Assembly (NCBI GenBank): GCA_902779035.1
Contig: CACZAH010000002.1
Coordinates: 16,688-80,687, forward strand
Length of the DNA: 64,000 nt
Source: an uncultured Erysipelotrichaceae bacterium
GTDB lineage: Bacteria; Bacillota_I; Bacilli_A; RF39; UBA660
Reading direction: 5' to 3'
Below the pieces are notes generated by a model. That model saw nothing but the letters and a program-made list of their open reading frames with translations, was not told where the DNA came from and did not search any database. Position 1 is the first letter of the stretch, and each line of letters opens with the position of its first letter. Position numbers and translations under genes: made by a program. Positions 4,128 to 52,232 of the stretch are shown one piece after another.

Positions 4128-6242
4128 ATGAATATGAATAATCCTTATCAAGAAAATCTTGAAAATGCTTTAGAGAAATATGGTAGAGATATAGTTAAGG
4201 CAGTTAAGGATAATAAGACTGATCCTGTAATAGGCAGGGACGAAGAAATACGTAATGTTACTCGAATACTATCGCGTAAGACTAAGAATAATCCTGTATT
4301 AATTGGTGAACCCGGTGTAGGTAAGACTGCAATTATAGAAGGACTTGCGCAAAGAATAGTTAAGGGAGATGTACCAAATAGTTTAAAGAATAAAACAGTT
4401 TGGGAATTAGATTTAGGTGCATTAATTGCTGGGGCGAAGTTTCGTGGTGAATTTGAGGAAAGACTAAAAGCCGTTTTAAAAGAAATCAAAGAATCTAATG
4501 GCGATATCATTCTTTTTATCGATGAGATACATATGATAGTTGGAGCAGGAGCAGAAGGTGCAATGGATGCAGGTAATCTTTTAAAACCAATGCTTGCTCG
4601 AGGCGAGATATTATGTATTGGTGCGACTACTTTAAATGAATACCGTAAGTATATTGAAAAAGATGGAGCACTAGAGAGAAGATTTCAAAAAGTAATGGTT
4701 AAAGAACCAACAGTAATGGATACTATTACAATACTTAGAGGTTTAAAATCAAGATTTGAAGTATATCATAAAGTAACTATTAAGGATAAAGCATTAGTTG
4801 CTGCTGCTACACTATCTAATAGATATATAACAGATAGATTCTTACCTGATAAGGCTATAGACTTAGTAGATGAGGCATGTGCAACTATTAAAGTACAAAT
4901 GGAGTCAGTTCCTACTGAGATTGATACTTTAACAAGACAAATTATGCAACTTGAAATTGAAAAGGAAGCCTTAAAGAAAGAAAAAGATGATATATCTAAA
5001 TCAAGAATTACTGATATAAATACTAAGCTGGAGGAACTTAAAGAAAAAGAGACTAAGTTAAAAAATGACTGGCAAGAAGAAAAGAATATTAATACATTAA
5101 TTAATAAAAAGAAAGAAGAAATAGAAAAAGCTACTTTAGATTTAGAGCGTGCAGAAGATGAGTACGAGCTTGAAAAAGCTGCAATACTTCGTCACGGTAC
5201 TTTACCTAAGTTAAATAAAGAATTAGAAGAATTGAGAGAAAAGAGCAAAAATACAATTCTTAGTGATGTTGTTGATGATGAAGATATTGCTAAAATAATA
5301 TCTAAATGGACTTCTATTCCTATTAGTAAACTTGTTGGTGGCGAAAGAGAAAAACTAATTAATCTAGAAAAGAATTTAGAGAGAAGAGTTAAAGGACAAA
5401 GTGATGCATTACATACTGTAAGTGAAGCTATAATTAGATCACGAGCAGGCATTAAAGATCCAAATAGACCAATTGGTTCATTTATCTTCTTAGGTCCTAC
5501 TGGTGTAGGTAAAACTGAAGTTGCTAAAAGTTTAGCAGAAGAGTTATTTGATGATGAAAGACACATGGTTAGAATTGATATGAGTGAGTATATGGAATCT
5601 CATTCGGTTGCTAGATTAATTGGTGCCCCTCCAGGATATGTTGGATATGATGAAGGTGGACAATTAACTGAAGCAGTTAGAAGAAATCCTTATAGTATTA
5701 TTCTATTTGATGAAATAGAAAAAGCACATAAAGACATATTTAATGTTTTACTTCAAATACTTGATGATGGTCGTATCACTGATTCACAGGGTAGAACAGT
5801 TGATTTTAAAAACACAATAATAATTATGACATCTAATATTGGTAGTGAGTATATTCTTGATAACAACGAAAATTCTAAAAAGCTTATTGAGACTGAATTA
5901 CACAGTACATTTAAACCAGAATTCTTAAATAGAATAGATGAGATTATTACATTTAATCCTCTTAATAAAGATATTCTATATGAGATTCTTGATAATCAAA
6001 TATTAGATATTAATAAAAGACTTATTAATAAACATATCATTATTGAACTTACTGATAATTGCAAAAATGCAATTATAGATAATGCCTATAATCCTATATA
6101 TGGAGCACGACCTTTAAAAAGATATTTAAGCAAAAACATTGAATCATTAATTGCAAACTCTATTATTAAAGATGAAATAAAACCAAATTCTAAAGTATTA
6201 ATAGATTATATAGATAATAACTATATTATTGCAAACAAATAA
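4128..6242 (+). CDS. clpB: ClpB-type AAA+ disaggregase lacking the N-terminal domain (two NBDs plus a coiled-coil middle domain)
   Basis: [10 protein letters not shown] (NBD1 Walker A), a coiled-coil M-domain, GPTGVGKTE (NBD2 Walker A), and a conserved ClpB C-terminus. The start at 4128 has a strong RBS; the 4104 ATG has none. Confidence 0.9.
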
Positions 6243-20253: not shown

Positions 20254-20328
20254 GGTGTCTCGCAGGCGATTCGAACGCCTGACCCTTTGATTAAAAGTCA
20301 AATGCTCTACCTACTGAGCTAGCGAGAC
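20254..20328 (-). tRNA. tRNA-Lys (anticodon UUU), CCA encoded
   Basis: The cloverleaf was folded manually. The anticodon loop is CTTTTAA and the acceptor stem GCGAGAC/GTCTCGC. Confidence 0.8.
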
Positions 20329-20345
20329 ATATAATTAAAACAAGA

Positions 20346-20420
20346 TGGCTGCCTCGGCTAGATTCGAACTAGCGCATGCCACAGTCAAAGTGTGGTGCCT
20401 TACCGCTTGGCTACGAGGCA
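20346..20420 (-). tRNA. tRNA-Gln (anticodon UUG), CCA encoded
   Basis: The anticodon loop CTTTGAC is flanked by the stem CCACA/TGTGG. The 3' end is GCCACCA. Confidence 0.75.
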
Positions 20421-20433
20421 ATAACCTTATAAG

Positions 20434-20518
20434 TGGTGGAGGGAGATGGATTTGAACCATCGAACCCGAAGGAACAGATTTACAGTCTGCCGCGTTTGGC
20501 CACTTCGCTATCCTTCCA
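20434..20518 (-). tRNA. tRNA-Tyr (anticodon GUA), long variable arm, CCA encoded
   Basis: 85 nt long. Anticodon loop CTGTAAA; a GGTTCAAATCC T-arm. Confidence 0.75.
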
Positions 20519-20523
20519 TAAAA

Positions 20524-20600
<77 letters not shown>

Positions 20601-20620
20601 ATAATAATAAAAAAATAAAA

Positions 20621-20697
20621 TGGTGGGCGATATAGGACTCGAACCTATGACCCCTTGCTTGTAAGGCAAGTGCTCTAACCAACTGAGCTAATCGCCC
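20621..20697 (-). tRNA. tRNA-Val (anticodon UAC), CCA encoded
   Basis: Anticodon loop CTTACAA with the stem CTTGC/GCAAG. GGTTCGAGTCC T-arm. Confidence 0.75.
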
Positions 20698-26608: not shown

Positions 26609-28069
26609 ATGCGTATTTATAAAACTGTGGATAAGAATATAGATTATATTAAAAATATTAATCATAATAGTAGTGATATTGTATCTAGAATAATAACTAA
26701 TAATAATATAAAAATAGGATATGTATATTTAGAAAGCGTAACTAGTGATGATAAAGTAAGTGAGTTTTTAAATAAAAGCATTATAGGTAAGAATACCCAA
26801 GATATATTTAGTAATATTGAAGATAGTATTTATAATAGTCATATTACCACTTTAAAAGAATTAGATAATATATTTTACTATTTATCATCTGGTTTTACAG
26901 TAATATTTATAGATAATTATGATATGTGTATTACAGTTGAAACTAGGATGAGTTTGGATAGGGGAGTTAGTGAGGCAACAAGTGAGCCTATAGTTAGAGG
27001 TCCTAAAGATAGTTTTACTGAGAATAATGCTATTAACTTAGGTTTAATTAGAAAAAGAATTAAAGATGAAAACTTAATCTTTGATGAAGTAAAAGTTGGT
27101 AAACGTACTAAAACTAAGGTAAGTGTTGCTTATATAAAGGATATAACTAATAGTAAAAATGTAATTAAAGTAATTGATAAACTTAAAAGTATAGATATAG
27201 ATGGAATATTAGATAGTGGTTATGTAAGAGAGTTTTTACGTGATCAATCAAGTACAGTATTTCCTGGAATGATTAGTACAGAACGACCTGACCTAGCTTG
27301 TACGTCATTACTAGATGGTAAGATAGTTGTACTTGTTGAAAATACTCCTTATGTATTAATAATGCCTGGTTTATTTATTGATTACTTTCATTCTCCTGAA
27401 GATAATTACGAGAAGCCTATTAATGCATCTTTCTTAAGATTACTTAGAATACTATGTTTTATAATTACAATATCTGTTCCTGCTTTATACGTTGCCTTAA
27501 TGACTTTTAATCCAGAAATAATACCTGATGAACTACTCATATCTCTCGCACTACAAAGAGATGGAGTTCCTTTTCCAACTGCTCTTGAAATACTTATATT
27601 TGTAATTGTATTTGAAATACTTAGACAAGCTGATGTTCACTCGCCAACAGTTAGTGGATCGGCTATGAATATAGTTGGAGCCTTAATACTTGGAGATGCG
27701 GCAGTAAATGCAGGAATAGTATCTCCTATCGCAATTATAATAGTTGCAGTTACATCTATTTGTGAACTAGTATTTTATGATGTAGATATGATTAATGCAG
27801 TAAGATTCTGGAGAATAATATTTATAATTGCATCTTTATTCTTAGGTATTATTGGTTTTGTATCATGTATGTTTATATTTGTAACTAAACTCTCTAGCAT
27901 TGTATCTTTAGATATACCTTACTTAACCCCTATAAGTCCTCTATCTACAACAGGTATAAAGAACTATTTATTTAGAATAAAGAGAACTAAGTTAAATAAT
28001 CGAGCTAAGTATTTAACTCGTAATATTAAAAGGATGGTGAGTCATGAAAAGACTAATACTAGTAATTAG
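26609..28069 (+). CDS. Spore germination receptor subunit A (GerA/GerKA family)
   Basis: The soluble N-terminal domain plus a C-terminal membrane domain with PFPTALEILIFVIVFEILRQADVHSPTVSGSAMNIVGALILGDAAV is typical of the GerAA family. The operon order A-C-B matches gerK. Confidence 0.85.
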   Translation: MRIYKTVDKNIDYIKNINHNSSDIVSRIITNNNIKIGYVYLESVTSDDKVSEFLNKSIIGKNTQDIFSNIEDSIYNSHITTLKELDNIFYYLSSGFTVIFIDNYDMCITVETRMSLDRGVSEATSEPIVRGPKDSFTENNAINLGLIRKRIKDENLIFDEVKVGKRTKTKVSVAYIKDITNSKNVIKVIDKLKSIDIDGILDSGYVREFLRDQSSTVFPGMISTERPDLACTSLLDGKIVVLVENTPYVLIMPGLFIDYFHSPEDNYEKPINASFLRLLRILCFIITISVPALYVALMTFNPEIIPDELLISLALQRDGVPFPTALEILIFVIVFEILRQADVHSPTVSGSAMNIVGALILGDAAVNAGIVSPIAIIIVAVTSICELVFYDVDMINAVRFWRIIFIIASLFLGIIGFVSCMFIFVTKLSSIVSLDIPYLTPISPLSTTGIKNYLFRIKRTKLNNRAKYLTRNIKRMVSHEKTNTSN

Positions 28070-29216
28070 TTTAATCATTATATGTACAGGGTGTTTTAAT
28101 TACAGTGAACTAAATGATTATGCTATCGCAACAGGTATGGCTATTGATAAGTCTGATGATGGATATGAGGTTAGTATGCTTATTTCTAATTCACCTAAAT
28201 CTAGTGAAAAGAATTATACAACAGTAGTATATAGCGGTAAAGGTAAAACTATATATGAAGCAATTAAAGAGATAGGTCTAATTTCTCCTAAAGAGTTATA
28301 CATAGGTCATCTATCAATACTTATAATATCAGATAGTGTTGCTAAAGATGGAATTAATTCCGTACTAGAGTTCTTACTACAAGAGCCTCGTTCTAAGAAA
28401 AACTTTTATGTCGCACTTTCTAAAGATAATAAAGCAAAAGATGTATTATCAATAACTTCTCCATTAACAGACTTTCCATCACAGAATCTAGCTACCAATC
28501 TTAAGGATACAACTAATTTACAAGGAAGTATAAGTGCGATAGATTTTAATACTCTTTTATATAAACTTGTAAATAAAGGAGTAGATCTTACTTTAAATGG
28601 ATTTGTTATTGTAGGAGATATTAAAGATGGAGTTAAAGAGTCAAATATGGAAACTAATAAGCCTGCATCTTATATAAAGTTAACTAATCAAGCCATATTT
28701 AAAAATGATAAATTAATTGCTTGGGCTAATAAAAACGAGAGTAGGGGAATTAATATTATTAATGATAAGATTCATGAGATGTATATTAAAGTTAAATGTG
28801 ATAATGGATTTATTGTAGTTGATACTAATACTTTAGAAACTAAAAAAAGTGTTGATAAAAAAGGTGATGTAACACTAAATACTACAGGTAAAGCATCTAT
28901 TAGCGAGATTACATGTGATATAGATCTTACTAAGCCTAGTAATATTAAAAGAATAGAAAATAAAGTTAATAATAAAATACAAGATTTAGAATTAAAAGCA
29001 ATTAATCTAAGCAAGAAATATTCTACTGATATATTTGGTATAGGTCTTATGTATTATCAAGATTATCCACATATTTATAATAAGATTAAAGATTATGATA
29101 AGTTTTATAAAAATATTAAGTTTAAAAGCAATGTAGATATAAAGATTAATACATCTGGTTCTATTAAACAAACTCTAAAGAATATAGAAGGGAGTAGATA
29201 TGAAGAAGATAACTAA
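28044..29216 (+). CDS. Spore germination receptor subunit C lipoprotein (GerAC/GerKC family)
   Basis: The lipobox LIIICTGC and the family-typical size. The start overlaps gerA-like by 26 nt. Confidence 0.75.
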   Translation: MKRLILVISLIIICTGCFNYSELNDYAIATGMAIDKSDDGYEVSMLISNSPKSSEKNYTTVVYSGKGKTIYEAIKEIGLISPKELYIGHLSILIISDSVAKDGINSVLEFLLQEPRSKKNFYVALSKDNKAKDVLSITSPLTDFPSQNLATNLKDTTNLQGSISAIDFNTLLYKLVNKGVDLTLNGFVIVGDIKDGVKESNMETNKPASYIKLTNQAIFKNDKLIAWANKNESRGINIINDKIHEMYIKVKCDNGFIVVDTNTLETKKSVDKKGDVTLNTTGKASISEITCDIDLTKPSNIKRIENKVNNKIQDLELKAINLSKKYSTDIFGIGLMYYQDYPHIYNKIKDYDKFYKNIKFKSNVDIKINTSGSIKQTLKNIEGSRYEEDN

Positions 29217-30300
29217 CTTACAATTAGGCTCACTAGTATTCTTTTTAATGCATGCATATTTTATTGGTATTACTTTTAGTTCTATTATTGTATCTTTAAA
29301 GCAAGACTCTTACCTTGGTATTATAGTAGGTTCTATTATAGGTTTTATACCACTATTAATTTACTTATATATATTTAATTATGAACCTAATCTAAATCTA
29401 AATGAGAAGAATATAAAGTTATTTGGTAAGTATATCGGTAATATATTAAATATAATTATTACTATATTTACATTTTTAATTATTACAATTGTATTCAGTA
29501 ATCTAGTTACTATAATACATACTGATTACTTAAGTAAAACCCCTATAATACTTCTTATTATTACTTTCTTAATACCTATATATTATTCTGTTTATACAGG
29601 AATAAAATCTATCTGTAGAGCATCTTTAATATTCTTCTATATGACAATAATTCTAATAATAATATCTAATTTAGGATTACTTATCCAAGTAGATATAAAT
29701 AACTTTAAACCATTCTTTTACAATAACTCTAATCTACTTAATGGAAGTATATATTTTGCTATATATAATGTTACTCCTCTTTATTTAATTAATATAATAC
29801 CTAAGAATGATATTATGAATAACAATAAGACTACTAAGTATATAATTATATTCTATTTATTATCAGTTATATCATTACTTGCAGTATCATTAAATATTAT
29901 TGGAATATTTGGTATAAGACTTACTAGTATGTATCAGTATCCTGAGTTTCAAATACTAAAACATGTATCTATTATAGGTATATCATCTAGAATAGATAGT
30001 ATATTATTTATAACATGGATATTTTCAATACTTATATTTGTAATAGTAGGACTATATTATGTAGTTAGTACATCACACTCTCTAATAAAAGAAAAAAACA
30101 ATATATTTTTAACAATATATTGTATATTAATATTATCACTTACACTCTTAGTACCTAATGATTTATTTATTAACTTTCTATCTATTAAGATACTACCACC
30201 AATAATAATTATATTTACCCTTACAGTATTTATATTAATGTATCTTAAAATTAATTATACCAGTAAAGTAAAGCGCACAAAGAGTACCTGCAACAAGTAG
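29200..30300 (+). CDS. Spore germination receptor subunit B (GerAB/GerKB, APC-superfamily permease-like)
   Basis: A polytopic membrane protein with ~10 TM helices. It sits in the operon and overlaps the C-subunit gene. Confidence 0.7.
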   Translation: MKKITNLQLGSLVFFLMHAYFIGITFSSIIVSLKQDSYLGIIVGSIIGFIPLLIYLYIFNYEPNLNLNEKNIKLFGKYIGNILNIIITIFTFLIITIVFSNLVTIIHTDYLSKTPIILLIITFLIPIYYSVYTGIKSICRASLIFFYMTIILIIISNLGLLIQVDINNFKPFFYNNSNLLNGSIYFAIYNVTPLYLINIIPKNDIMNNNKTTKYIIIFYLLSVISLLAVSLNIIGIFGIRLTSMYQYPEFQILKHVSIIGISSRIDSILFITWIFSILIFVIVGLYYVVSTSHSLIKEKNNIFLTIYCILILSLTLLVPNDLFINFLSIKILPPIIIIFTLTVFILMYLKINYTSKVKRTKSTCNK

Positions 30301-33647: not shown

Positions 33648-34211
33648 TCAAAACAAAATATTTGTGATTATTATACTTGCAATTATCCCTATTAAATCTG
33701 CACATAATCCTGCCCAAAGTGCATATCTTATTTTTTTAATTCCTACACTACCAAAGTACAAAGTTATTACATATAAGGTAGTATCAGTTGAGCCTTGCAT
33801 AACTGAAGCAAGTAATCCTACAAATGAATCAGGTCCATGATTATCATAAATGCTATTTAAAAGAGCAAGTGATGCACTTCCAGATATTGGACGTATTGCA
33901 GCTAAAGGAAGTATTTCTAATGGTACATTTAGTTTATAAAAAAGCGGTTTAAATAAGCCTAATACAAATGATAAGAATCCACTATCAATTAATATATTAA
34001 CTCCAAGTATCATAGCTAGAAAGGTTGGAAAAAGACTCATTATCATTCCTACTGAATCCTTAGAACCATCTAAGAAAGTATCATATACTGGTACTTTTTT
34101 TCTTACTCCATATATTATTATTAATAAAACTATTAAAGGTATTATTAAATTAGAAATATATTTAATGATGATACCACTTTGTAAATATTTTATCCACAAA
34201 TATTCCTCCAA
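33648..34211 (-). CDS. spmB: Spore maturation protein B (nucleoside-transporter-like membrane protein)
   Basis: A polytopic membrane protein located immediately after spmA and dacB, matching the conserved dacB-spmA-spmB operon. Confidence 0.7.
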   Translation of the reverse strand: MEEYLWIKYLQSGIIIKYISNLIIPLIVLLIIIYGVRKKVPVYDTFLDGSKDSVGMIMSLFPTFLAMILGVNILIDSGFLSFVLGLFKPLFYKLNVPLEILPLAAIRPISGSASLALLNSIYDNHGPDSFVGLLASVMQGSTDTTLYVITLYFGSVGIKKIRYALWAGLCADLIGIIASIIITNILF

Positions 34212-34752
34212 TCGTTGAACATGTAGTACCTATGATGCAGGCAAGAAGTATAGATGTAGGATTTACACTCTTATACATCATACGCATAGATATAATAGTT
34301 GTTGGAACGAGTGTTACTCCACTAGTATTAATTATTAAGAATGTAATCATAGACCTGCTTGCAGTATCTTTCTTTTTGTTTAGATTTTGTAACGATTCCA
34401 TAGCCTTTAACCCAAAAGGAGTAGCCGCACTACCTAGTCCAAATACGTTAGCTATTATATTACTTGCTATATAACTTAATGACTCATGTCCAGCAGGTAT
34501 TTCAGGAAATAATTTAGTAAGAACTGGTGAAATTAAATTTGAAAATTTATCTAATAGTTTAGATTTTTCTGCAATGTTCATAAGTCCCATCCAAAGAGCA
34601 AGCACCGGAAATATTTGAATAATCATATCAAGACTAGTTTTTGAACTTTCCATTATTGTATTATTAACAACATCTACATTATTAGTTACAATTGCATATA
34701 TAATTCCACAAAATATAAATATAGTCCAAATTATATTTACCACAAACGCCAC
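34162..34752 (-). CDS. spmA: Spore maturation protein A
   Basis: A Gate-domain-like membrane protein. It overlaps the dacB stop and sits in the operon context. Confidence 0.7.
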   Translation of the reverse strand: MAFVVNIIWTIFIFCGIIYAIVTNNVDVVNNTIMESSKTSLDMIIQIFPVLALWMGLMNIAEKSKLLDKFSNLISPVLTKLFPEIPAGHESLSYIASNIIANVFGLGSAATPFGLKAMESLQNLNKKKDTASRSMITFLIINTSGVTLVPTTIISMRMMYKSVNPTSILLACIIGTTCSTIGGIFVDKIFTKWYHH

Positions 34753-35789
34753 TTCTTCTTATTCTTTGTTTTTAACTTTGCATATATAGGAGCACTGTAT
34801 ATTTGTTTATCTCCTAAGTTTACTATAACACTTCCAACATTCTCTCTATTCTTTATTTTCTTAATCTTTTTTATTTTATATTTAATATTAATAGATTCTT
34901 TCTCACTATCATCTAGTATATATTTAAAGTCTTCTTTTATATATAAGTTATAGTCTTTATAATAATTCTCATTATAGATATTGATATATCCTTTTTTTAA
35001 AATAGAATAGCTTTTATAATTCTCAAATCCATAATCAAATAAATCCATATGATCTTTAAAATCATTACCATCATTAAGAGTTACGGCAACTAAATTTGTA
35101 TTATCTTTAGAAGCTGTTGTTACAAGTGTCCTTTTAGCAATCTTAGTATATCCTGTTTTACCACCTGTTGTATATTTATAAAGTCTAAGTAATTTATGTT
35201 TGTTATGCCAAATATAAGTATTTTTATTTGTTTCTAACTTATACTCTTTTGTCTTAACTATCTTTCTATAATCACTAATTTTCATTGCATAACTAGTAAG
35301 TATTGCCATATCATATGCAGTTGAATAATTGGCTTTATCTTCATCAAGTCCACTAGGATTATTAAATTTACTATTTTTCATACCTATTTCTTTCGCTTTA
35401 TGATTCATCATTATAATAAAGTTATCAACACTACCACCTACATAATCAGCAATAGCTAGAGCTGCATCATTACCACTTCTAAGCATTAATCCATATATTA
35501 AATCTCTTAACTTCATCTTTTCTCCAATTTTAATGTATATAGCAGATCCATATGCTTTATTTATTGAACTATTTATTTTTACCTCTTCATCTAATTTACC
35601 TGATTCTATAGCTAGAACAGCTGTCATTATTTTAGATATACTTGCAACAGAACTTACTTCATGAATATTTTTAGAATATATTATTCTATTATTATCTGTA
35701 TCCATTAGTATAGCAGATTGAGCAGTGGTACTTATACCTTTTACTATGAAAGGAAGCAGTAGTGTAATTATCAGTATTATTTTTTTCAT
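34737..35789 (-). CDS. dacB: D-alanyl-D-alanine carboxypeptidase (sporulation-type PBP5*)
   Basis: Signal peptide; the SxxK motif (ASISKIMT); the SxN motif (LRSGND); ~350 aa. Followed by spmAB. Confidence 0.8.
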   Translation of the reverse strand: MKKIILIITLLLPFIVKGISTTAQSAILMDTDNNRIIYSKNIHEVSSVASISKIMTAVLAIESGKLDEEVKINSSINKAYGSAIYIKIGEKMKLRDLIYGLMLRSGNDAALAIADYVGGSVDNFIIMMNHKAKEIGMKNSKFNNPSGLDEDKANYSTAYDMAILTSYAMKISDYRKIVKTKEYKLETNKNTYIWHNKHKLLRLYKYTTGGKTGYTKIAKRTLVTTASKDNTNLVAVTLNDGNDFKDHMDLFDYGFENYKSYSILKKGYINIYNENYYKDYNLYIKEDFKYILDDSEKESINIKYKIKKIKKIKNRENVGSVIVNLGDKQIYSAPIYAKLKTKNKKKWRLW

Positions 35790-35825
35790 ATGTCACCTAC
35801 ATAAGTATATGAAAAAAAATACTAG

Positions 35826-36503
35826 TTATGCCTTGTAATAATTAATTAATACATCACTAATATTTTTAGCAATCCTTTTGTGATACCATTTCTGTCTTAA
35901 TAAGTATCTATCATTAGCATTAGATAAAAAACCTATTTCAATAAGTACTCCTGGTATAGTAATTTTCCTATTAAGTAACATTGTTTTAATTTCTTTAACC
36001 TCTCTTTTAGTATTTAAATTTTTCTTAAAATGTGCCTGAAATAATTTAGCAATCTCTAGATTTTTACTATTTACGTCATCATAAAATACTTGTGCCCCAT
36101 GCCAGGTAGTTGACGATACTGAATTTAGATGAATTGATATATACATATCCGCACCTGAACCATTTATGATTTTAGCTCTGTTATTTAAATCACTTCTTTT
36201 TCTCGCGCCGGTTCTCATATAGCTTAAATCGTAATCCCCATATCTAGTCATATATACTGTAGCTCCTAAACTCTCTAATTGTTCTTTTATGGCAAAGCAT
36301 ATATCTAAATTAATATCTTTTTCATAGATATCTTTATAAATAGAACCTGGATCTAAACCACCATGTCCTGCATCTATATAAAATGTGCGACCAAATAATG
36401 GAAGAGATGTAGCTTTAATTTTATATAGTCCACCAATAAGTAATAAAAATATAAATACTAAAAAAACATATAGTTTGTTTGATTTGTGTTTATATATAAA
36501 CAT
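35826..36503 (-). CDS. cwlD: N-acetylmuramoyl-L-alanine amidase (Amidase_3), CwlD-like
   Basis: An N-terminal TM; FYIDAGHGGLDPGS (zinc ligands); a C-terminal E...H pattern. ~225 aa, matching CwlD. Confidence 0.7.
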   Translation of the reverse strand: MFIYKHKSNKLYVFLVFIFLLLIGGLYKIKATSLPLFGRTFYIDAGHGGLDPGSIYKDIYEKDINLDICFAIKEQLESLGATVYMTRYGDYDLSYMRTGARKRSDLNNRAKIINGSGADMYISIHLNSVSSTTWHGAQVFYDDVNSKNLEIAKLFQAHFKKNLNTKREVKEIKTMLLNRKITIPGVLIEIGFLSNANDRYLLRQKWYHKRIAKNISDVLINYYKA

Positions 36504-44897: not shown

Positions 44898-45500
44898 CTA
44901 CTCATATTTTTCATTTAATAATTCGTATTTTATTATTCTTTTTAACTCAAAATGCCTAATATCTTGTTTCTTTTCACAAAAGGCTGCACAGTACCAACCA
45001 TCTTGAAATAAAAACATTTCTGCTGGATCTATTACTCTTTCGTTTTCACCTTTACCATAAGAGTAATATAATATTTTAACTTTCCTCTTTTCTTTTATTG
45101 CTCTTGTTAATAAATTATACTTCTTTCCATTTTCATCTTTTAAATTTAATTCTTTTTCTTCTTGCTTACTTCCTATGTATACGCCTTTAATTTTATCTTG
45201 AAGTAATATAAGTTCATCTTTTATGTCCTTATCTTTTTCACTTGCTATGTACTTATCTAATAATTTAGCATCTTTCATTTTAAATTTTCTAACAGGCATG
45301 CGAACTGATTGATTTAATACATATCCTCCATATGGTCCCATTATTGTATCAATATATATTCCTGCTTTTTCCAAATCTTCTTTATATACTCTAATCATTC
45401 TATAAGTTACTTCAAGTTTGTTTGATAATTCACTTATGCTATATTTTCTTCCAGACTGTAATAGTTGCAACATTGTTAATACATTGGATATTTTAGACAT
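44898..45500 (-). CDS. HTH + WYL-domain transcriptional regulator (YafY/CapW-like, short form)
   Basis: The N-terminal HTH_11-like segment MLQLLQSGRKYSISELSNKLEVTYRMIRVYKEDLEKAG. The C-terminal WYL-like region KVKILYYSYGKGENERVIDPAEMFLFQDGWYCAAFC...IRHFELKRI. Start at an ATG with an AGGTGG RBS. Confidence 0.55.
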   Translation of the reverse strand: MSKISNVLTMLQLLQSGRKYSISELSNKLEVTYRMIRVYKEDLEKAGIYIDTIMGPYGGYVLNQSVRMPVRKFKMKDAKLLDKYIASEKDKDIKDELILLQDKIKGVYIGSKQEEKELNLKDENGKKYNLLTRAIKEKRKVKILYYSYGKGENERVIDPAEMFLFQDGWYCAAFCEKKQDIRHFELKRIIKYELLNEKYE

Positions 45501-45582
45501 AAAACCACCTATATAAATTATATCATATCTTTTATCTTTCAAAAATATCCATGAAAAGGTATCTAAAGTGCGTTATAACATA

Positions 45583-49052: not shown

Positions 49053-49080
49053 TTCGACAAATTTCGACAAAAGTGTCGAA
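49053..49080 (-). promoter_or_regulatory. Triple 7-mer repeat TTCGACA / TTCGACA / TGTCGAA (two direct, one inverted) in the csp leader/promoter region; candidate operator or RNA element
   Basis: Three copies, seen directly, at a ~10-11 bp spacing. Confidence 0.35.
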
Positions 49081-49225: not shown

Positions 49226-49254
49226 TTGTCGATAAATAATATTAATTCTATAAT
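49226..49254 (+). promoter_or_regulatory. Candidate agrBD promoter (TTGTCG-N17-TATAAT) 20 nt upstream of the agrB start
   Basis: The hexamers were read directly. An AGGAGA RBS precedes the ATG at 49275. Confidence 0.45.
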
Positions 49255-49274: not shown

Positions 49275-49904
49275 ATGAAAAAAATCGTATTAAATCATTG
49301 GATGAATATCATCAAAAACAATAAAAGATATGATAATGTAAAACTTGCGGAAATTGAATATGGATTAACTGCTATATATTTAACTTTTTCTAAATTAATA
49401 GTAATTGCTCTATTATCTATATTGTTAGGTATATTTAAAGAAATGATAATCTTTTTATTAATTTATAACGTCTTAAGAATGCCATCATTTGGAATACACG
49501 CAACAAAAAGTTGGATATGTCTTCTAACGTCATCAATTCTGTTTATTGGATTACCAATTGTTTGTTTAAATATTCATTTAAGTATAGCAATAAAGATAAT
49601 TATTGGTGTAATTGAATGTTTCCTAATGTTTAAGAACAGCCCAGCAGACACAAAAAAAAGACCTATAGTTAATCCTAAACGAAGATTAACATATAAGTTT
49701 ATTTCTACAATACTAGCAATTACTTTTGTAGTACTAAGTATCACAATAAATAATATTTTTATATCAAATTGTTTAGTATTCGGATTAATTCTTCAAAACG
49801 TTTTAATATCTCCATTAACATATAAGATATTTAAACAACCTTATAATAATTATAAAGAATTTCTAAGATTAAATCCAGATTTTCTAAATAAGAAAGCGTG
49901 TTAA
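49275..49904 (+). CDS. agrB: AgrB-family membrane peptidase that processes the autoinducing peptide
   Basis: ~200 aa with 6 TM helices. The AgrB-conserved region LRMPSFGIHATK (cf. R..sGG.HA.) and PADTKKRPI. Followed by an AgrD-like ORF. Confidence 0.8.
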   Translation: MKKIVLNHWMNIIKNNKRYDNVKLAEIEYGLTAIYLTFSKLIVIALLSILLGIFKEMIIFLLIYNVLRMPSFGIHATKSWICLLTSSILFIGLPIVCLNIHLSIAIKIIIGVIECFLMFKNSPADTKKRPIVNPKRRLTYKFISTILAITFVVLSITINNIFISNCLVFGLILQNVLISPLTYKIFKQPYNNYKEFLRLNPDFLNKKAC

Positions 49905-49948
49905 TGTTATAAAGCATTTAACATAGAAATTCAGAAAGGAGGGTAGTT

Positions 49949-50068
49949 ATGGGATTTTTAGCAAACATTTTAGCTGCACTTGGTATTGGAAGTGCTGCGA
50001 CTGGATCACAAGCATGTCATTTATGGATACTTGACGAGCCAGAATGCCCAGAAAATTTAATCAAATAA
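49949..50068 (+). CDS. agrD: AgrD-like autoinducing peptide precursor (39 aa)
   Basis: An AAAGGAGGG RBS. The amphipathic leader MGFLANILAALGIGSAATGS; the Cys-containing core SQACHLWIL; and the AgrD-typical acidic tail DEPECPENLIK (cf. DEVEVPKEL in S. aureus and HQPEEP in C. perfringens). Confidence 0.75.
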   Translation: MGFLANILAALGIGSAATGSQACHLWILDEPECPENLIK

Positions 50069-50082
50069 TAATTTATTTATGG

Positions 50083-50126
50083 AAAAAGCTGTTAAACCTC
50101 TAAATCATAATTTACAGCTTTTTTTT
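50083..50126. terminator. Bidirectional intrinsic terminator between the convergent agrD and agrC-like genes (AAAAGCTGT-N21-ACAGCTTTT flanked by A/T runs)
   Basis: A perfect 9-bp inverted repeat with an A5 run before it and a T6+ run after it. Confidence 0.6.
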
Positions 50127-50140
50127 ACAGTTCTTTATAA

Positions 50141-51442
50141 TTACTTTGTATCCATTTTATAGAACAATTTTTGAGTAAATAAATCTTTTGTAATCATTCT
50201 TTCGTTATATAATTTTTGATTTTTTTCTAATGTTTTTTTTACTAATTGCAGACCATAACCTCTACCATCACCCTTAGAAGTCTTTAATTCCATATTATTA
50301 TTTTTAATCTCGCCTTGATAATTGTTTGAAATATCAATAACAAATTGATTGTTTTTTAAATAGAAATCTAAGTTAATAATCTTATTGTTAAGATTTTCAC
50401 AAGCATCTATTGCATTATCAATAAATACTCCTATTATTGTACATATATCTACTGCATCATCATCATTTACGTAAAAATTATGATTTGCAGATATTTTTTT
50501 ATCAACGTGAACATAATACTTTATTTGTTTTTCTTCAATGTTATTTAATTTACTATAAACTAATCCTCTAATACCTCCTTGAGGTATTCTTAAAGATGTA
50601 ATAATTGTTGAATTAATCATCGAATCTCTATTGTTTATTAATGAATTAATATAATTTAAAATCTTTTTATTTTTAGTCATTGATTTAATTGTTAATAATT
50701 GATTTTTGTTTTCATGATTTATTATTCTATATTCATCTATCAATTTCTCGCGTGTTTTTAAATCTTTTATACTAGTTTGATATTTAAAATTGGTTTTATA
50801 ATATTTATTTTGATAATTAAATGAATATATGACTATAATAGTATAAATAATTGCAATTATCGAATTTAATATCAGTGATAGTAAAACATTATTCTTAAAA
50901 TATATTGTAGTTGTAAAAATATTAGTACCTATCGCAACAAACAAAACTAATAGTGTAACTTGTTTTACATTAATACGCAATGTAATTCTTAAAAAGAAAT
51001 TATATAATTTTTTGATAAAACTAATTTTTGAAATTAACAGAGAAAATAAAGAAATAATAATATCTATAGAAATTGTTAAAAATGTAGAATTTGAGATTAT
51101 ATTAGCATCTACTTTTAAAACTAACATCATAAAAATATAAATTATAGATTCTGATATAATAATTATTAATTCAGTAAGAAATGTCAATAAAATTGATTTC
51201 CTTAGAGTTATCCTAAAAATATTTTTACAGAATACAATTAATAAAACAACTACTAAGAATCCTTTTATAAAATTATTACCATATTCATGAATTAATACAA
51301 TACAAATTGATAACAAAATCATTTCAATAATAAAATAAATATTTCTTTTCTCTATATTAATACTTGCAATTTTTTCCCAAATTGATACTTGCACAAATAA
51401 TGACACAAAAGTACTAATCACATCTAATATAAAATAACTCAC
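50141..51442 (-). CDS. AgrC-like sensor histidine kinase (HPK10 family: polytopic sensor plus a GHKL ATPase)
   Basis: A ~200-aa N-terminal domain with 6-7 TM helices. The H-box region RIINHENKNQLLTI, the N-box FIDNAIDACEN and the G-box SKGDGRGYGLQLV. Confidence 0.75.
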   Translation of the reverse strand: MSYFILDVISTFVSLFVQVSIWEKIASINIEKRNIYFIIEMILLSICIVLIHEYGNNFIKGFLVVVLLIVFCKNIFRITLRKSILLTFLTELIIIISESIIYIFMMLVLKVDANIISNSTFLTISIDIIISLFSLLISKISFIKKLYNFFLRITLRINVKQVTLLVLFVAIGTNIFTTTIYFKNNVLLSLILNSIIAIIYTIIVIYSFNYQNKYYKTNFKYQTSIKDLKTREKLIDEYRIINHENKNQLLTIKSMTKNKKILNYINSLINNRDSMINSTIITSLRIPQGGIRGLVYSKLNNIEEKQIKYYVHVDKKISANHNFYVNDDDAVDICTIIGVFIDNAIDACENLNNKIINLDFYLKNNQFVIDISNNYQGEIKNNNMELKTSKGDGRGYGLQLVKKTLEKNQKLYNERMITKDLFTQKLFYKMDTK

Positions 51443-52143
51443 ACAACCATCTCCTTTTTATATTTATCTGATAACAAATCAGTATATTCACCATTATCAA
51501 AATAAATTATTCTTTTACTTCTATCGATTCTTGATATTCTAGTTTTGTTAACAATACATGCTCTATGAGAGTAAATAAATCTATCATCTAACATATCATA
51601 TATTTGAGATAATGACTTTCTAACTTTATATTCTGCATAATCTGTTTTTATAGTTGTTTTTCTATCAAAAGTTTCTTTAATAAAACATAAAATATCGTTC
51701 AAATCAATAATATAAGTATTGGTTCCATCTTCAATTCTAATCGTTCTCTTTAATTTCACTAAATCAATTGCTTTGTGTAAAACTTCATTTAGTCTTTTAT
51801 CCATATTATCAAATTTATTAACAAATGCTAAGAACATTAGGTCATTTTGTAAAATTAATCTTCCTAACTCATCATGACCAGTAAGAAATATGATGACACT
51901 ATCTAAATCCTTATTCCTAATCTCCCTTGCAACATCAATGCCAGATCTCGATGGAGTTTCAATATCAAGTATATAGATTCTAAATGGCATCTTGCTCTTT
52001 ACTAATTTCATAAAATCATCATTAAAATCTCTATAAACATGCGTTTGATAATTACATTTATTATTTACCATAAATTTTTCAACTAGATTTACAACTTTAT
52101 CTAAGTCTCTTTTGTTATCATCACAAATAACAACATTCAACAT
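51439..52143 (-). CDS. LytTR-family response regulator (AgrA-like)
   Basis: The receiver domain (LNVVICDDN..., phospho-acceptor in YILDIETP) and the C-terminal LytTR DNA-binding domain (YSHRACIVNKTRISRIDRSKRIIYFDNGEY). A 4-nt overlap with the kinase gene. Confidence 0.8.
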   Translation of the reverse strand: MLNVVICDDNKRDLDKVVNLVEKFMVNNKCNYQTHVYRDFNDDFMKLVKSKMPFRIYILDIETPSRSGIDVAREIRNKDLDSVIIFLTGHDELGRLILQNDLMFLAFVNKFDNMDKRLNEVLHKAIDLVKLKRTIRIEDGTNTYIIDLNDILCFIKETFDRKTTIKTDYAEYKVRKSLSQIYDMLDDRFIYSHRACIVNKTRISRIDRSKRIIYFDNGEYTDLLSDKYKKEMVV

Positions 52144-52232
52144 AAATCAAGCTCCTTTCTAATTAACTTCTCGTTAATTGCACATATATTACCACAAAAT
52201 TGTATAAAATGCAAATAAATGCTGGCAATAGA

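Follow-up and report, generated by a model that had tools for sequence, protein, structure and literature searches.

Does the short open reading frame (ORF) that follows an agrB gene in the genome of an uncultured Erysipelotrichaceae bacterium encode the precursor of a cyclic quorum-sensing peptide, and if it does, how large is the ring of the mature signal? The question is raised by a 64,000-nucleotide stretch of contig CACZAH010000002.1 (hereafter the window, meaning the whole stretch analysed), in which a first-pass annotation, made from the sequence alone, had read the ORF at 49949-50068 as an AgrD-type precursor for an autoinducing peptide (AIP) having an unusual core, closing on either a CHLWI or a CHLWIL ring. 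The ORF and its translation were reproduced exactly in the present analysis. It is probable that the ORF is the agrD gene of a complete agr system, whose product is cut between Leu28 and Asp29 and yields the six-residue macrocycle [CHLWIL].

A peptide precursor conserved beside agrB

In translation, the product of the ORF reads MGFLANILAALGIGSAATGSQA-CHLWIL-DEPECPENLIK, and the three-part AgrD layout, the ring Cys and the acidic tail assigned to it in the first-pass annotation agree with the hydropathy, with the family alignment and with the NCBIfam model TIGR04223 (AgrD family cyclic lactone autoinducer peptide). The mean Kyte-Doolittle hydropathy is +1.14 in the leader, +1.75 in the core and -1.25 in the acidic follower; the TIGR04223 score, 24.3 bits (E = 2.6e-05), exceeds the cutoff of 19, with residues 4-39 of the protein aligned on model positions 3-38 without a net insertion or deletion. 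The start codon lies 44 nt 3' of agrB on the same strand, an adjacency common to the related loci, and no competing ORF was found on the opposite strand at agrD. All features by which AgrD-family membership can be tested are found here, namely the TIGR04223 score, the adjacency to agrB, a Cys followed by a hypervariable core, and an acidic follower with D-E and P-x-x-P. Close relatives have already been named 'cyclic lactone autoinducer peptide' by NCBI, and the identical 39-residue peptide is present on 13 contigs from independent metagenomes, rumen data sets included.

A scan for AgrB, with one genome per species, gave 80 related loci (81 with the window), all from metagenome-assembled genomes of uncultured gut or rumen Bacilli or 'Tenericutes', in which AgrB identity is 47-75%; they include Candidatus Faecisoma, Ca. 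Coprosoma, Acholeplasma sp. CAG:878 and one closed 1.26-Mb chromosome. The first-pass annotation had named the lack of the ORF in relatives carrying the same agrB as an outcome that would speak against its reading, and the opposite was found, a small ORF homologous to agrD following agrB in 80 of 80 related loci when partial copies at contig ends are counted. Full peptides number 76, in 75 of the 81 loci; of the six loci without one, five are cut by contig ends (the AgrD start being visible in four), and in the sixth, L014, the core is interrupted by an in-frame TGA (at about 4622-4703, GSQACFT-stop-WWDEEETPKSLIK), to be explained by a nonsense mutation, by pseudogene formation or by a fault of the assembly. 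Recoding of TGA as Trp in this core (CFT-stop-WW) was considered and rejected, the long ORFs of L014 being of equal length under genetic codes 11 and 4, and a fusion of AgrB to AgrD in L018 and L030 was likewise discarded, both having a normal agrB stop and a separate agrD. Across the related loci, invariant amino-acid columns use two to four synonymous codons (Ser at position -3 from the ring Cys is written AGT, AGC, TCA and TCT), so that selection is considered to act on the protein and not on the DNA.

It could be argued that the ORF, with merely 39 codons in a genome of 28% G+C (the value found for the window), is a chance or decayed reading frame from which no peptide is made, and the stop within the core of L014 may be quoted to the same effect. 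We assign this explanation a practically negligible probability, because the hidden Markov model match lies above a curated cutoff, the neighbour is a Pfam AgrB protein, and conservation in the related loci is universal and accompanied by synonymous codon variation; the ribosome-binding site is also strong, and the core diverges together with the sensor half of the kinase (see below). Judged from these features of the sequence, the ORF is a genuine cyclic quorum-sensing peptide precursor, its match being far above chance.

The partners expected of such a precursor are encoded alongside it (Table 1). AgrB retains the catalytic His and Cys together with the essential Arg and Gly, and the locus further contains a LytTR regulator and an AgrC-type polytopic kinase. 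Residues 1-205 of the kinase contain about seven hydrophobic segments, the best matches of the kinase among solved structures are S. aureus AgrC (4bxi and 6e52), and it matches the staphylococcal AgrC model of NCBIfam weakly; the best NCBIfam match of the regulator is quorum_RR_AgrA (5.7e-19, far below the equivalog cutoff). By its AgrB, its AgrC-type kinase and LytTR regulator, and the divergence of the sensor with the peptide core (see below), the locus appears to be a complete agr-type quorum-sensing system with AgrB, AgrD, AgrC and AgrA.

Column entropies were determined for the 73 distinct peptides, aligned on the ring Cys (position 0). They are 0.21, 0.10, 1.21, 0.56 and 0.10 bits for G-S-Q-A-C (-4 to 0), 3.20, 2.68, 2.43, 2.71 and 2.46 bits for the variable core (+1 to +5), and 0.10, 0, 1.14, 0.83, 0.70 and 0 bits for D-E-P-E-C-P (+6 to +11). 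The ring position is Cys in 72 of the 73 and Ser in one; in the follower, Asp is kept in 72 and both Glu and the final Pro in all 73. The cores number 68 when identical ones are counted once, and each of them is hydrophobic or aromatic. A pattern of the type GSQA-C-x5-DEPxCP, with five variable residues, is found in 74 of the 76 complete peptides, and a family profile search of a large protein collection returned 1709 sequence clusters, the best 121 of which contain 109 distinct cores and have the C-x5-DE spacing in 121 of 121 parsed. The five residues HLWIL that separate Cys23 from D29-E30 are present as first described and exceed by one the number in S. aureus AgrD (C28...M32/D33; PMC10196373), but this spacing, which had been regarded as departing from the usual one, is the rule of the lineage; to call the core unusual was an overstatement, given that the spacing is normal here and six-residue AIPs have already been documented.

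Several members of the family deviate from the common form. Two have six residues between Cys and D-E, L065 (4665-4793; CIIWFLF-DEPEMP) and L078 (4618-4743; CMLLFVV-DEPECP), and would give seven-residue rings under the ruler model. In L051 (4602-4724), Ser replaces the ring Cys (GSEAS-LVVIF-DEEETP), making its product a lactone candidate. A second Cys lies inside the core in L003 (3087-3206; CHCWFI) and L080 (4632-4751; CSCWVL). L055 has two tandem agrD copies (4627-4749 and 5093-5215) with near-identical leaders and the cores IVLWI and MLLWL, and such a strain may make two signals. Eleven records (L014, L016, L017, L049, L051, L057, L061, L063, L069, L075 and L079) are titled Muribaculaceae, Bacteroidaceae or Actinomycetes and carry the Bacilli-type csp-agr locus (L014 and L016 through rplQ); their bin taxonomy is probably mislabelled.

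Ring size and form of the mature signal

Position +5 is hypervariable while D+6 and E+7 are near-invariant, and it is for this reason that +5 is taken to behave as part of the signal and not of the recognition tail. In S. aureus, Cys84 of AgrB cuts AgrD between M32 and D33, and D33 and E34 of AgrD, as well as R70, G75 and H77 of AgrB, are essential (PMC10196373). The corresponding R68, G73, H75 and C82 in the AgrB of the window have the same spacing as S. aureus R70/G75/H77/C84 and are kept in at least 97% of the 81 sequences; a structure search for AgrB found no solved structure, and the catalytic residues were therefore matched through the literature. Because D-E is invariant immediately after the variable block and these AgrB residues are kept, cleavage at L28/D29 with closure on C23 is the simplest reading, whereas a five-residue ring would imply that the cut has moved off D-E and that a hypervariable residue has been placed in the recognition tail.

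Mass spectrometry has already documented AIP macrocycles of six residues, namely those of C. acetobutylicum and R. cellulolyticum (PMC8251862, PMC10301443, PMC12312760), and a 2025 primer states that some AIPs have rings of six residues instead of five (PMC12312760). The nearest precedent is AgrD of C. acetobutylicum (CA_C0079), which reads ...GKCVLVTL-YEPKMP... (PMC10301443 supplement) and gives a native six-membered, tail-less AIP detected by high-resolution mass spectrometry (HRMS; PMC8251862), listed as [CVLVTL] (PMC12312760); the synthetic six-ring, tail-less peptide R6T0 is active (PMC10301443). The invariant D-E after the variable block and this precedent support the six-membered ring that the first-pass annotation had suggested; of the two rings that it named, CHLWIL is clearly favoured, while CHLWI is disfavoured by the variability of +5 and the position of D-E. 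The predicted [M+H]+ values are 766.4069 for cyclo-CHLWIL, 653.3228 for cyclo-CHLWI, 837.4440 for A-[CHLWIL] and 965.5026 for QA-[CHLWIL]; the linear hexapeptide would have 784.417.

In the proposed pathway, the hydrophobic leader would bring the 39-residue precursor to the membrane, where AgrB, through H75 and C82, would recognise D-E-P-E-C-P and cut at L28/D29 to form an acyl-enzyme thioester. The thiol of C23 would then resolve this thioester to give the six-residue thiolactone [CHLWIL], the follower with its second Cys being discarded, and the leader would be removed, most likely right after G-S-Q-A, so that no exocyclic tail is left. A subsequent S-to-N acyl shift, as in clostridial peptides, may convert the thiolactone into homodetic cyclo(CHLWIL) with a free thiol, both forms having a predicted [M+H]+ of 766.407. 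The extracellular peptide would bind the polytopic sensor domain of the AgrC-like kinase, which would phosphorylate the LytTR regulator, and the latter probably feeds back on the agrBD promoter.

Two other products of the same system have to be weighed against this one. If AgrB cut between I27 and L28, the ring would be the five-residue [CHLWI] and L28 would leave with the follower; the five-residue ring is by a wide margin the most frequent form among AIPs (PMC10301443, PMC12312760), and +5, always hydrophobic (I, L, V, F or W), could be a loosely constrained P1' residue. This is nevertheless unlikely, for +5 is as variable as +1 to +4 and is followed by an invariant Asp column, the D-E essential in S. 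aureus stands directly after the scissile bond (PMC10196373), and C. acetobutylicum, with the identical C-x5-[Y/D]-E-P-x-x-P spacing, makes a six-residue ring by HRMS (PMC8251862); in L065 and L078, moreover, the distance from Cys to D-E varies while DE-P-x-x-P stays fixed. A mature signal that keeps a short tail, such as A-[CHLWIL] or QA-[CHLWIL], and thereby remains a stable thiolactone, like the AIPs of staphylococci and Listeria, must be taken more seriously as a possible, though less probable, outcome, because staphylococcal AIPs have tails of two to four residues and one Listeria form is listed as A[CFMFV] (PMC12312760). Set against this, positions -4 to -1 are near-invariant whereas staphylococcal tails vary in length and sequence between agr groups (PMC12312760), the clostridial AIPs detected so far, including both six-residue ones, all have no N-terminal extension (PMC8251862), and S-Q-A before the Cys would fit a small-x-small peptidase site. 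Since GSQA is near-invariant across about 70 different cores, it is assumed to serve removal of the leader rather than signalling, and by analogy with the clostridial peptides the tail-less product is probably the correct one.

Several points weigh against the reading of the ORF as agrD of a complete agr system with the product [CHLWIL]. The Pfam AgrD model (PF05931), which is centred on staphylococci, scores the protein at 17.7 bits, below its gathering threshold of 22.7, and the kinase and the regulator both lie far below the NCBIfam staphylococcal equivalog cutoffs, so that, as predicted proteins, they count as agr-like but not, on this criterion, as orthologs. That +5 is hypervariable agrees with its membership of the ring without proving it, and the structure of the product is deduced wholly by analogy. 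A short conserved A- or QA- tail is possible and would block the rearrangement to a lactam. As for the feedback, the window's own pair of candidate LytTR sites is degenerate and has a spacing of 20 nt, and the loci that supplied the repeat consensus of the relatives are also those in which its occurrence was counted. We infer where the precursor is cut, the lack of a tail, the conversion into a lactam, the autoinducing feedback and the regulon.

Divergence of the core with the sensor, and the second cysteine

Among the proteins of the locus the kinase diverges most: its mean identity to the protein of the window is 37%, where AgrB has 57%, the regulator 50% and ribosomal protein L17 (rplQ) 89%, and its entropy is 2.3-2.9 bits in the sensor half against 1.3-2.1 bits in the kinase half. 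In a partial Mantel analysis, core distance is correlated with sensor distance given kinase-domain distance (r = 0.159), a value reached in 0 of 2000 permutations. Among pairs with a kinase distance of at most 0.30, those with identical cores have a sensor distance of 0.09, equal to the kinase distance, whereas those with at least one core difference have sensor distances of 0.52-0.63 at kinase distances of 0.20-0.27. The two nearest relatives found, both from metagenomes, illustrate the pattern: L087 (regulator 87% identical) and L088 (regulator 84%, L17 100%) have nearly the same leader as the peptide in the window, yet between them they carry GWWIL and HSFFW where the window has HLWIL, and identity in the sensor halves falls to 39% and 30%. 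Such co-divergence of core and sensor is the classical pattern of agr specificity groups (PMC12312760), and it provides good, if indirect, evidence from the sequences that the variable block is the ligand. In L088 (7065-8616), about 2.1 kb of frameshifted ORFs lie between the kinase gene and agrD, where the window has a 72-nt terminator spacer; this insert may be a transposase remnant.

The second Cys, C33, was noticed in the first-pass annotation and held to be atypical of the tail; it is present, but it is the residue typical of this lineage in P-x-x-P, position +10 being Cys in 63 of the 73 distinct peptides (both Cys codons occur), Thr in seven and Met in three. The P-x-x-P motif, of which C33 is the second x, is taken as the AgrB recognition site (PMC8748961), and the C. 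acetobutylicum group has Met, Ile, Phe or Val at the equivalent position (PMC10301443 supplement). C33 is not expected in the signal because, with the cut as predicted, it departs with the follower. A role in the chemistry, either within the product as part of a larger ring or a disulfide, or in a thiol-dependent step with Cys166 of AgrB (at about 49770-49772), might be argued from the retention of Cys in about 85% of relatives with both codons in use, and from its co-occurrence with AgrB Cys166 (54 of 64 loci with the follower Cys against 2 of 11 without; Fisher 3e-05). Such a role is scarcely probable, given that 11 of 75 loci have Thr or Met there and an otherwise intact system, that the M/I/F/V of the C. 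acetobutylicum group implies that a hydrophobic contact suffices, that C33 is C-terminal to the predicted scissile bond, and that the association with AgrB Cys166 is confounded by phylogeny. The losses are spread over about six lineages, and in the divergent part of the tree a hand count gave about 12 of 21 against 2 of 10; the covariation, real in the raw counts and too confounded by phylogeny, was rejected as functional evidence. This uncultured, host-associated Bacilli clade has its compact agr module at a fixed site of the chromosome; that it uses homodetic cyclohexapeptide signals and, in addition, a thiol step between C33 and AgrB Cys166, such as a transient disulfide or thioester relay that holds or releases the follower, is as a combined reading highly unlikely. 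To our knowledge, no agr system has a thiol-dependent processing step of this kind.

Locus layout, regulation and known counterparts

The four genes form two convergent units, agrB-agrD on the plus strand and kinase-regulator on the minus strand. Their order, secA-hpf-csp, then agrB and agrD facing the kinase and regulator genes, then rplQ-rpoA, is the same on all 13 contigs carrying the identical peptide, and the order from csp through agrB, agrD, kinase and regulator to rplQ is kept in the related loci wherever the flank is long enough. A hairpin lies between the two units, and an A-run upstream of it supplies a U-run on the minus strand; although a simple terminator scan did not report this hairpin, it is likely to be a two-way terminator.

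Table 1 Features of the agr locus in the window
Feature	Position	Strand	Remarks
Candidate LytTR boxes (weak), TTTTGTCGTAGAA / TTTTGTGCGCAAA	49120..49153	+	20-nt period; degenerate positional counterpart of the relatives' repeat pair
Candidate agrBD promoter, TTGTCG, 17 nt, TATAAT	49226..49254	+	10/12 consensus matches
agrB, membrane cysteine peptidase/cyclase, 209 residues	49275..49904	+	Pfam AgrB 3.2e-32; hydrophobic segments fit a membrane protein
Shine-Dalgarno sequence AGGAGG	49937..49942	+	6 nt before the agrD ATG; read from the sequence
agrD ORF, 39-residue AIP precursor MGFLANILAALGIGSAATGSQACHLWILDEPECPENLIK	49949..50068	+	ATG start; stop codon included
Leader peptide, residues 1-22	49949..50014	+	Ends G-S-Q-A against the ring Cys
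Core, C23-L28	50015..50032	+	Cys23 and hypervariable HLWIL; predicted six-residue macrocycle [CHLWIL]
Follower (AgrB recognition), D29-K39	50033..50065	+	DEPECPENLIK, with D-E and P-x-x-P
Second Cys, C33	50045-50047	+	Within P31-E-C-P34
12-bp hairpin and U-run between agrD and the kinase gene	50081..50129	both	-11.9 kcal/mol, z = -2.45 on the plus strand
AgrC-like sensor histidine kinase, 433 residues	50141..51442	-	HATPase_c_5 1e-16; GHKL kinase domain after the sensor part
AgrA-like response regulator, receiver and LytTR	51439..52143	-	LytTR 3e-15, Response_reg 3e-07; 4-nt overlap with the kinase gene
Candidate kinase-regulator promoter, TTGCCA, 18 nt, TACAAT	52199..52228	-	10/12 consensus matches only

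The -10 hexamer of the candidate agrBD promoter is kept in relatives, as a TAT.AT block in the intergenic alignment. Direct repeats of 9 bp with a 21-bp period are the geometry expected of the sites of LytTR regulators such as AgrA and ComE. A TGTYTRAAA direct-repeat pair with a 21-nt period occurs 5' of agrB in 52 of 79 related loci, mostly at -148 to -164 from the agrB ATG, against 7% of control chunks, the consensus having come from those same loci. Because the window's own repeat pair is degenerate, autoinduction here may be presumed only by reference to the relatives. Across the 64-kb window the LytTR-like pair is not enriched (16 matches against 10.75 expected, with 9 of 100 shuffles doing as well), for which reason no regulon can be proposed, and a search of Rfam around the locus found no RNAIII-like or other structured RNA, with a sub-threshold cspA match only.

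The hexamer TCGACA/TGTCGA has four of its five copies in the window within the 296-nt csp-agrB spacer (at 49054, 49064, 49074 and 49227), and in the spacers of related loci it occurs at 3.0 per kb against 0.28 per kb overall, with a conserved AAA.TTCGACA block adjoining csp. Possible roles are those of an operator or of a promoter element for csp; as LytTR boxes, the hexamers were rejected, lying next to csp at no fixed spacing to the agrB promoter. The csp-agrB spacer itself is about 560 nt long in L018-L022, L032-L035, L039, L046, L048, L052 and L077 and about 300-345 nt elsewhere, with 2249 nt in L019.

The window also holds a germinant-receptor operon (GerA, GerAC and spore permease), near which lie a gene for a DacB-like carboxypeptidase, then two Gate-domain (SpmA/SpmB-like) genes, and one for a CwlD-like amidase, the spore genes being within 26609-30300 (plus strand) and 33648-36503 (minus strand). 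From this gene content, the small-genome Bacilli lineage looks like an endospore former. Sporulation is under the control of six-residue AIPs in both C. acetobutylicum and R. cellulolyticum, which makes it a candidate output for the agr system in the window. Elsewhere in the window, a cluster of five tRNA genes lies at 20256-20697 (minus strand), and a gene for a regulator with a helix-turn-helix and a WYL domain adjoins secA at 44898-45542 (minus strand).

The system is worth comparing with those already characterised. It resembles that of C. acetobutylicum in the identical Cys-x5-[Y/D]-E-P-x-x-P spacing and in having agrBD and agrCA in separate transcription units (PMC10301443), an arrangement of separate operons known in some clostridia (PMC12312760). 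It differs in that the precursor has 39 instead of 54 residues, with a 22-residue hydrophobic leader ending in GSQA rather than a long charged one, in that the follower begins with D-E and not Y-E, with Cys at the site of the clostridial M, I, F or V, and in that the host belongs to an uncultured Bacilli lineage. The locus is adjoined by csp and rplQ, as are related loci, and not by a LanM-like gene of the CA_C0082 type; adjacency to CA_C0082 has been reported to accompany the clostridial agr cluster and does not define the ring type. When the products alone are compared, the predicted peptide is like Rc-AIP1 of R. cellulolyticum, cyclo(CWFWSY), in being six-residue, Cys-first, aromatic or hydrophobic and tail-less; Rc-AIP1 rearranges from the thiolactone to a homodetic lactam with a free thiol and still signals at 200 nM (PMC8251862), but it comes from a cultured clostridium, in which it controls sporulation.

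With S. aureus (AIP-I, YST[CDFIM]) the locus shares the three-part precursor, D-E directly after the scissile bond (the cut being a predicted one in the window), the AgrB spacing given above and a hypervariable core that diverges with the sensor domain of AgrC, whereas S. aureus has a five-residue ring, a variable tail of two to four residues, a single agrBDCA operon and the effector RNAIII. The AIPs of C. perfringens [CLWFT], L. monocytogenes [CFMFV] and Lactobacillus plantarum [CVGIW] are tail-less or nearly so and hydrophobic, like the prediction for the window, but their rings have five residues. Rings of a size other than five are tolerated by agr-type systems, as is seen from FsrD of Enterococcus faecalis, whose product GBAP, QN[SPNIFGQWM] (PMC12312760), is, in contrast to the predicted peptide, a tailed lactone of nine residues with closure on Ser. 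No paper with DEPECP was found in a search of the literature, and one for RFN20 with quorum found nothing relevant.

The six-residue ring is already known from Clostridium, and the system in the window is probably a further, ordinary case from another lineage, by which the documented range of six-residue AIPs would be widened beyond Clostridium. With sensor halves down to 30-39% identity among the nearest relatives found, one of which has an identical L17, the family offers a system for studying the origin of agr specificity groups. The template GSQA / C-x5 / DEPxCP would, moreover, make the mature signals predictable and synthesizable for more than 100 cores of gut and rumen bacteria that have never been cultured.

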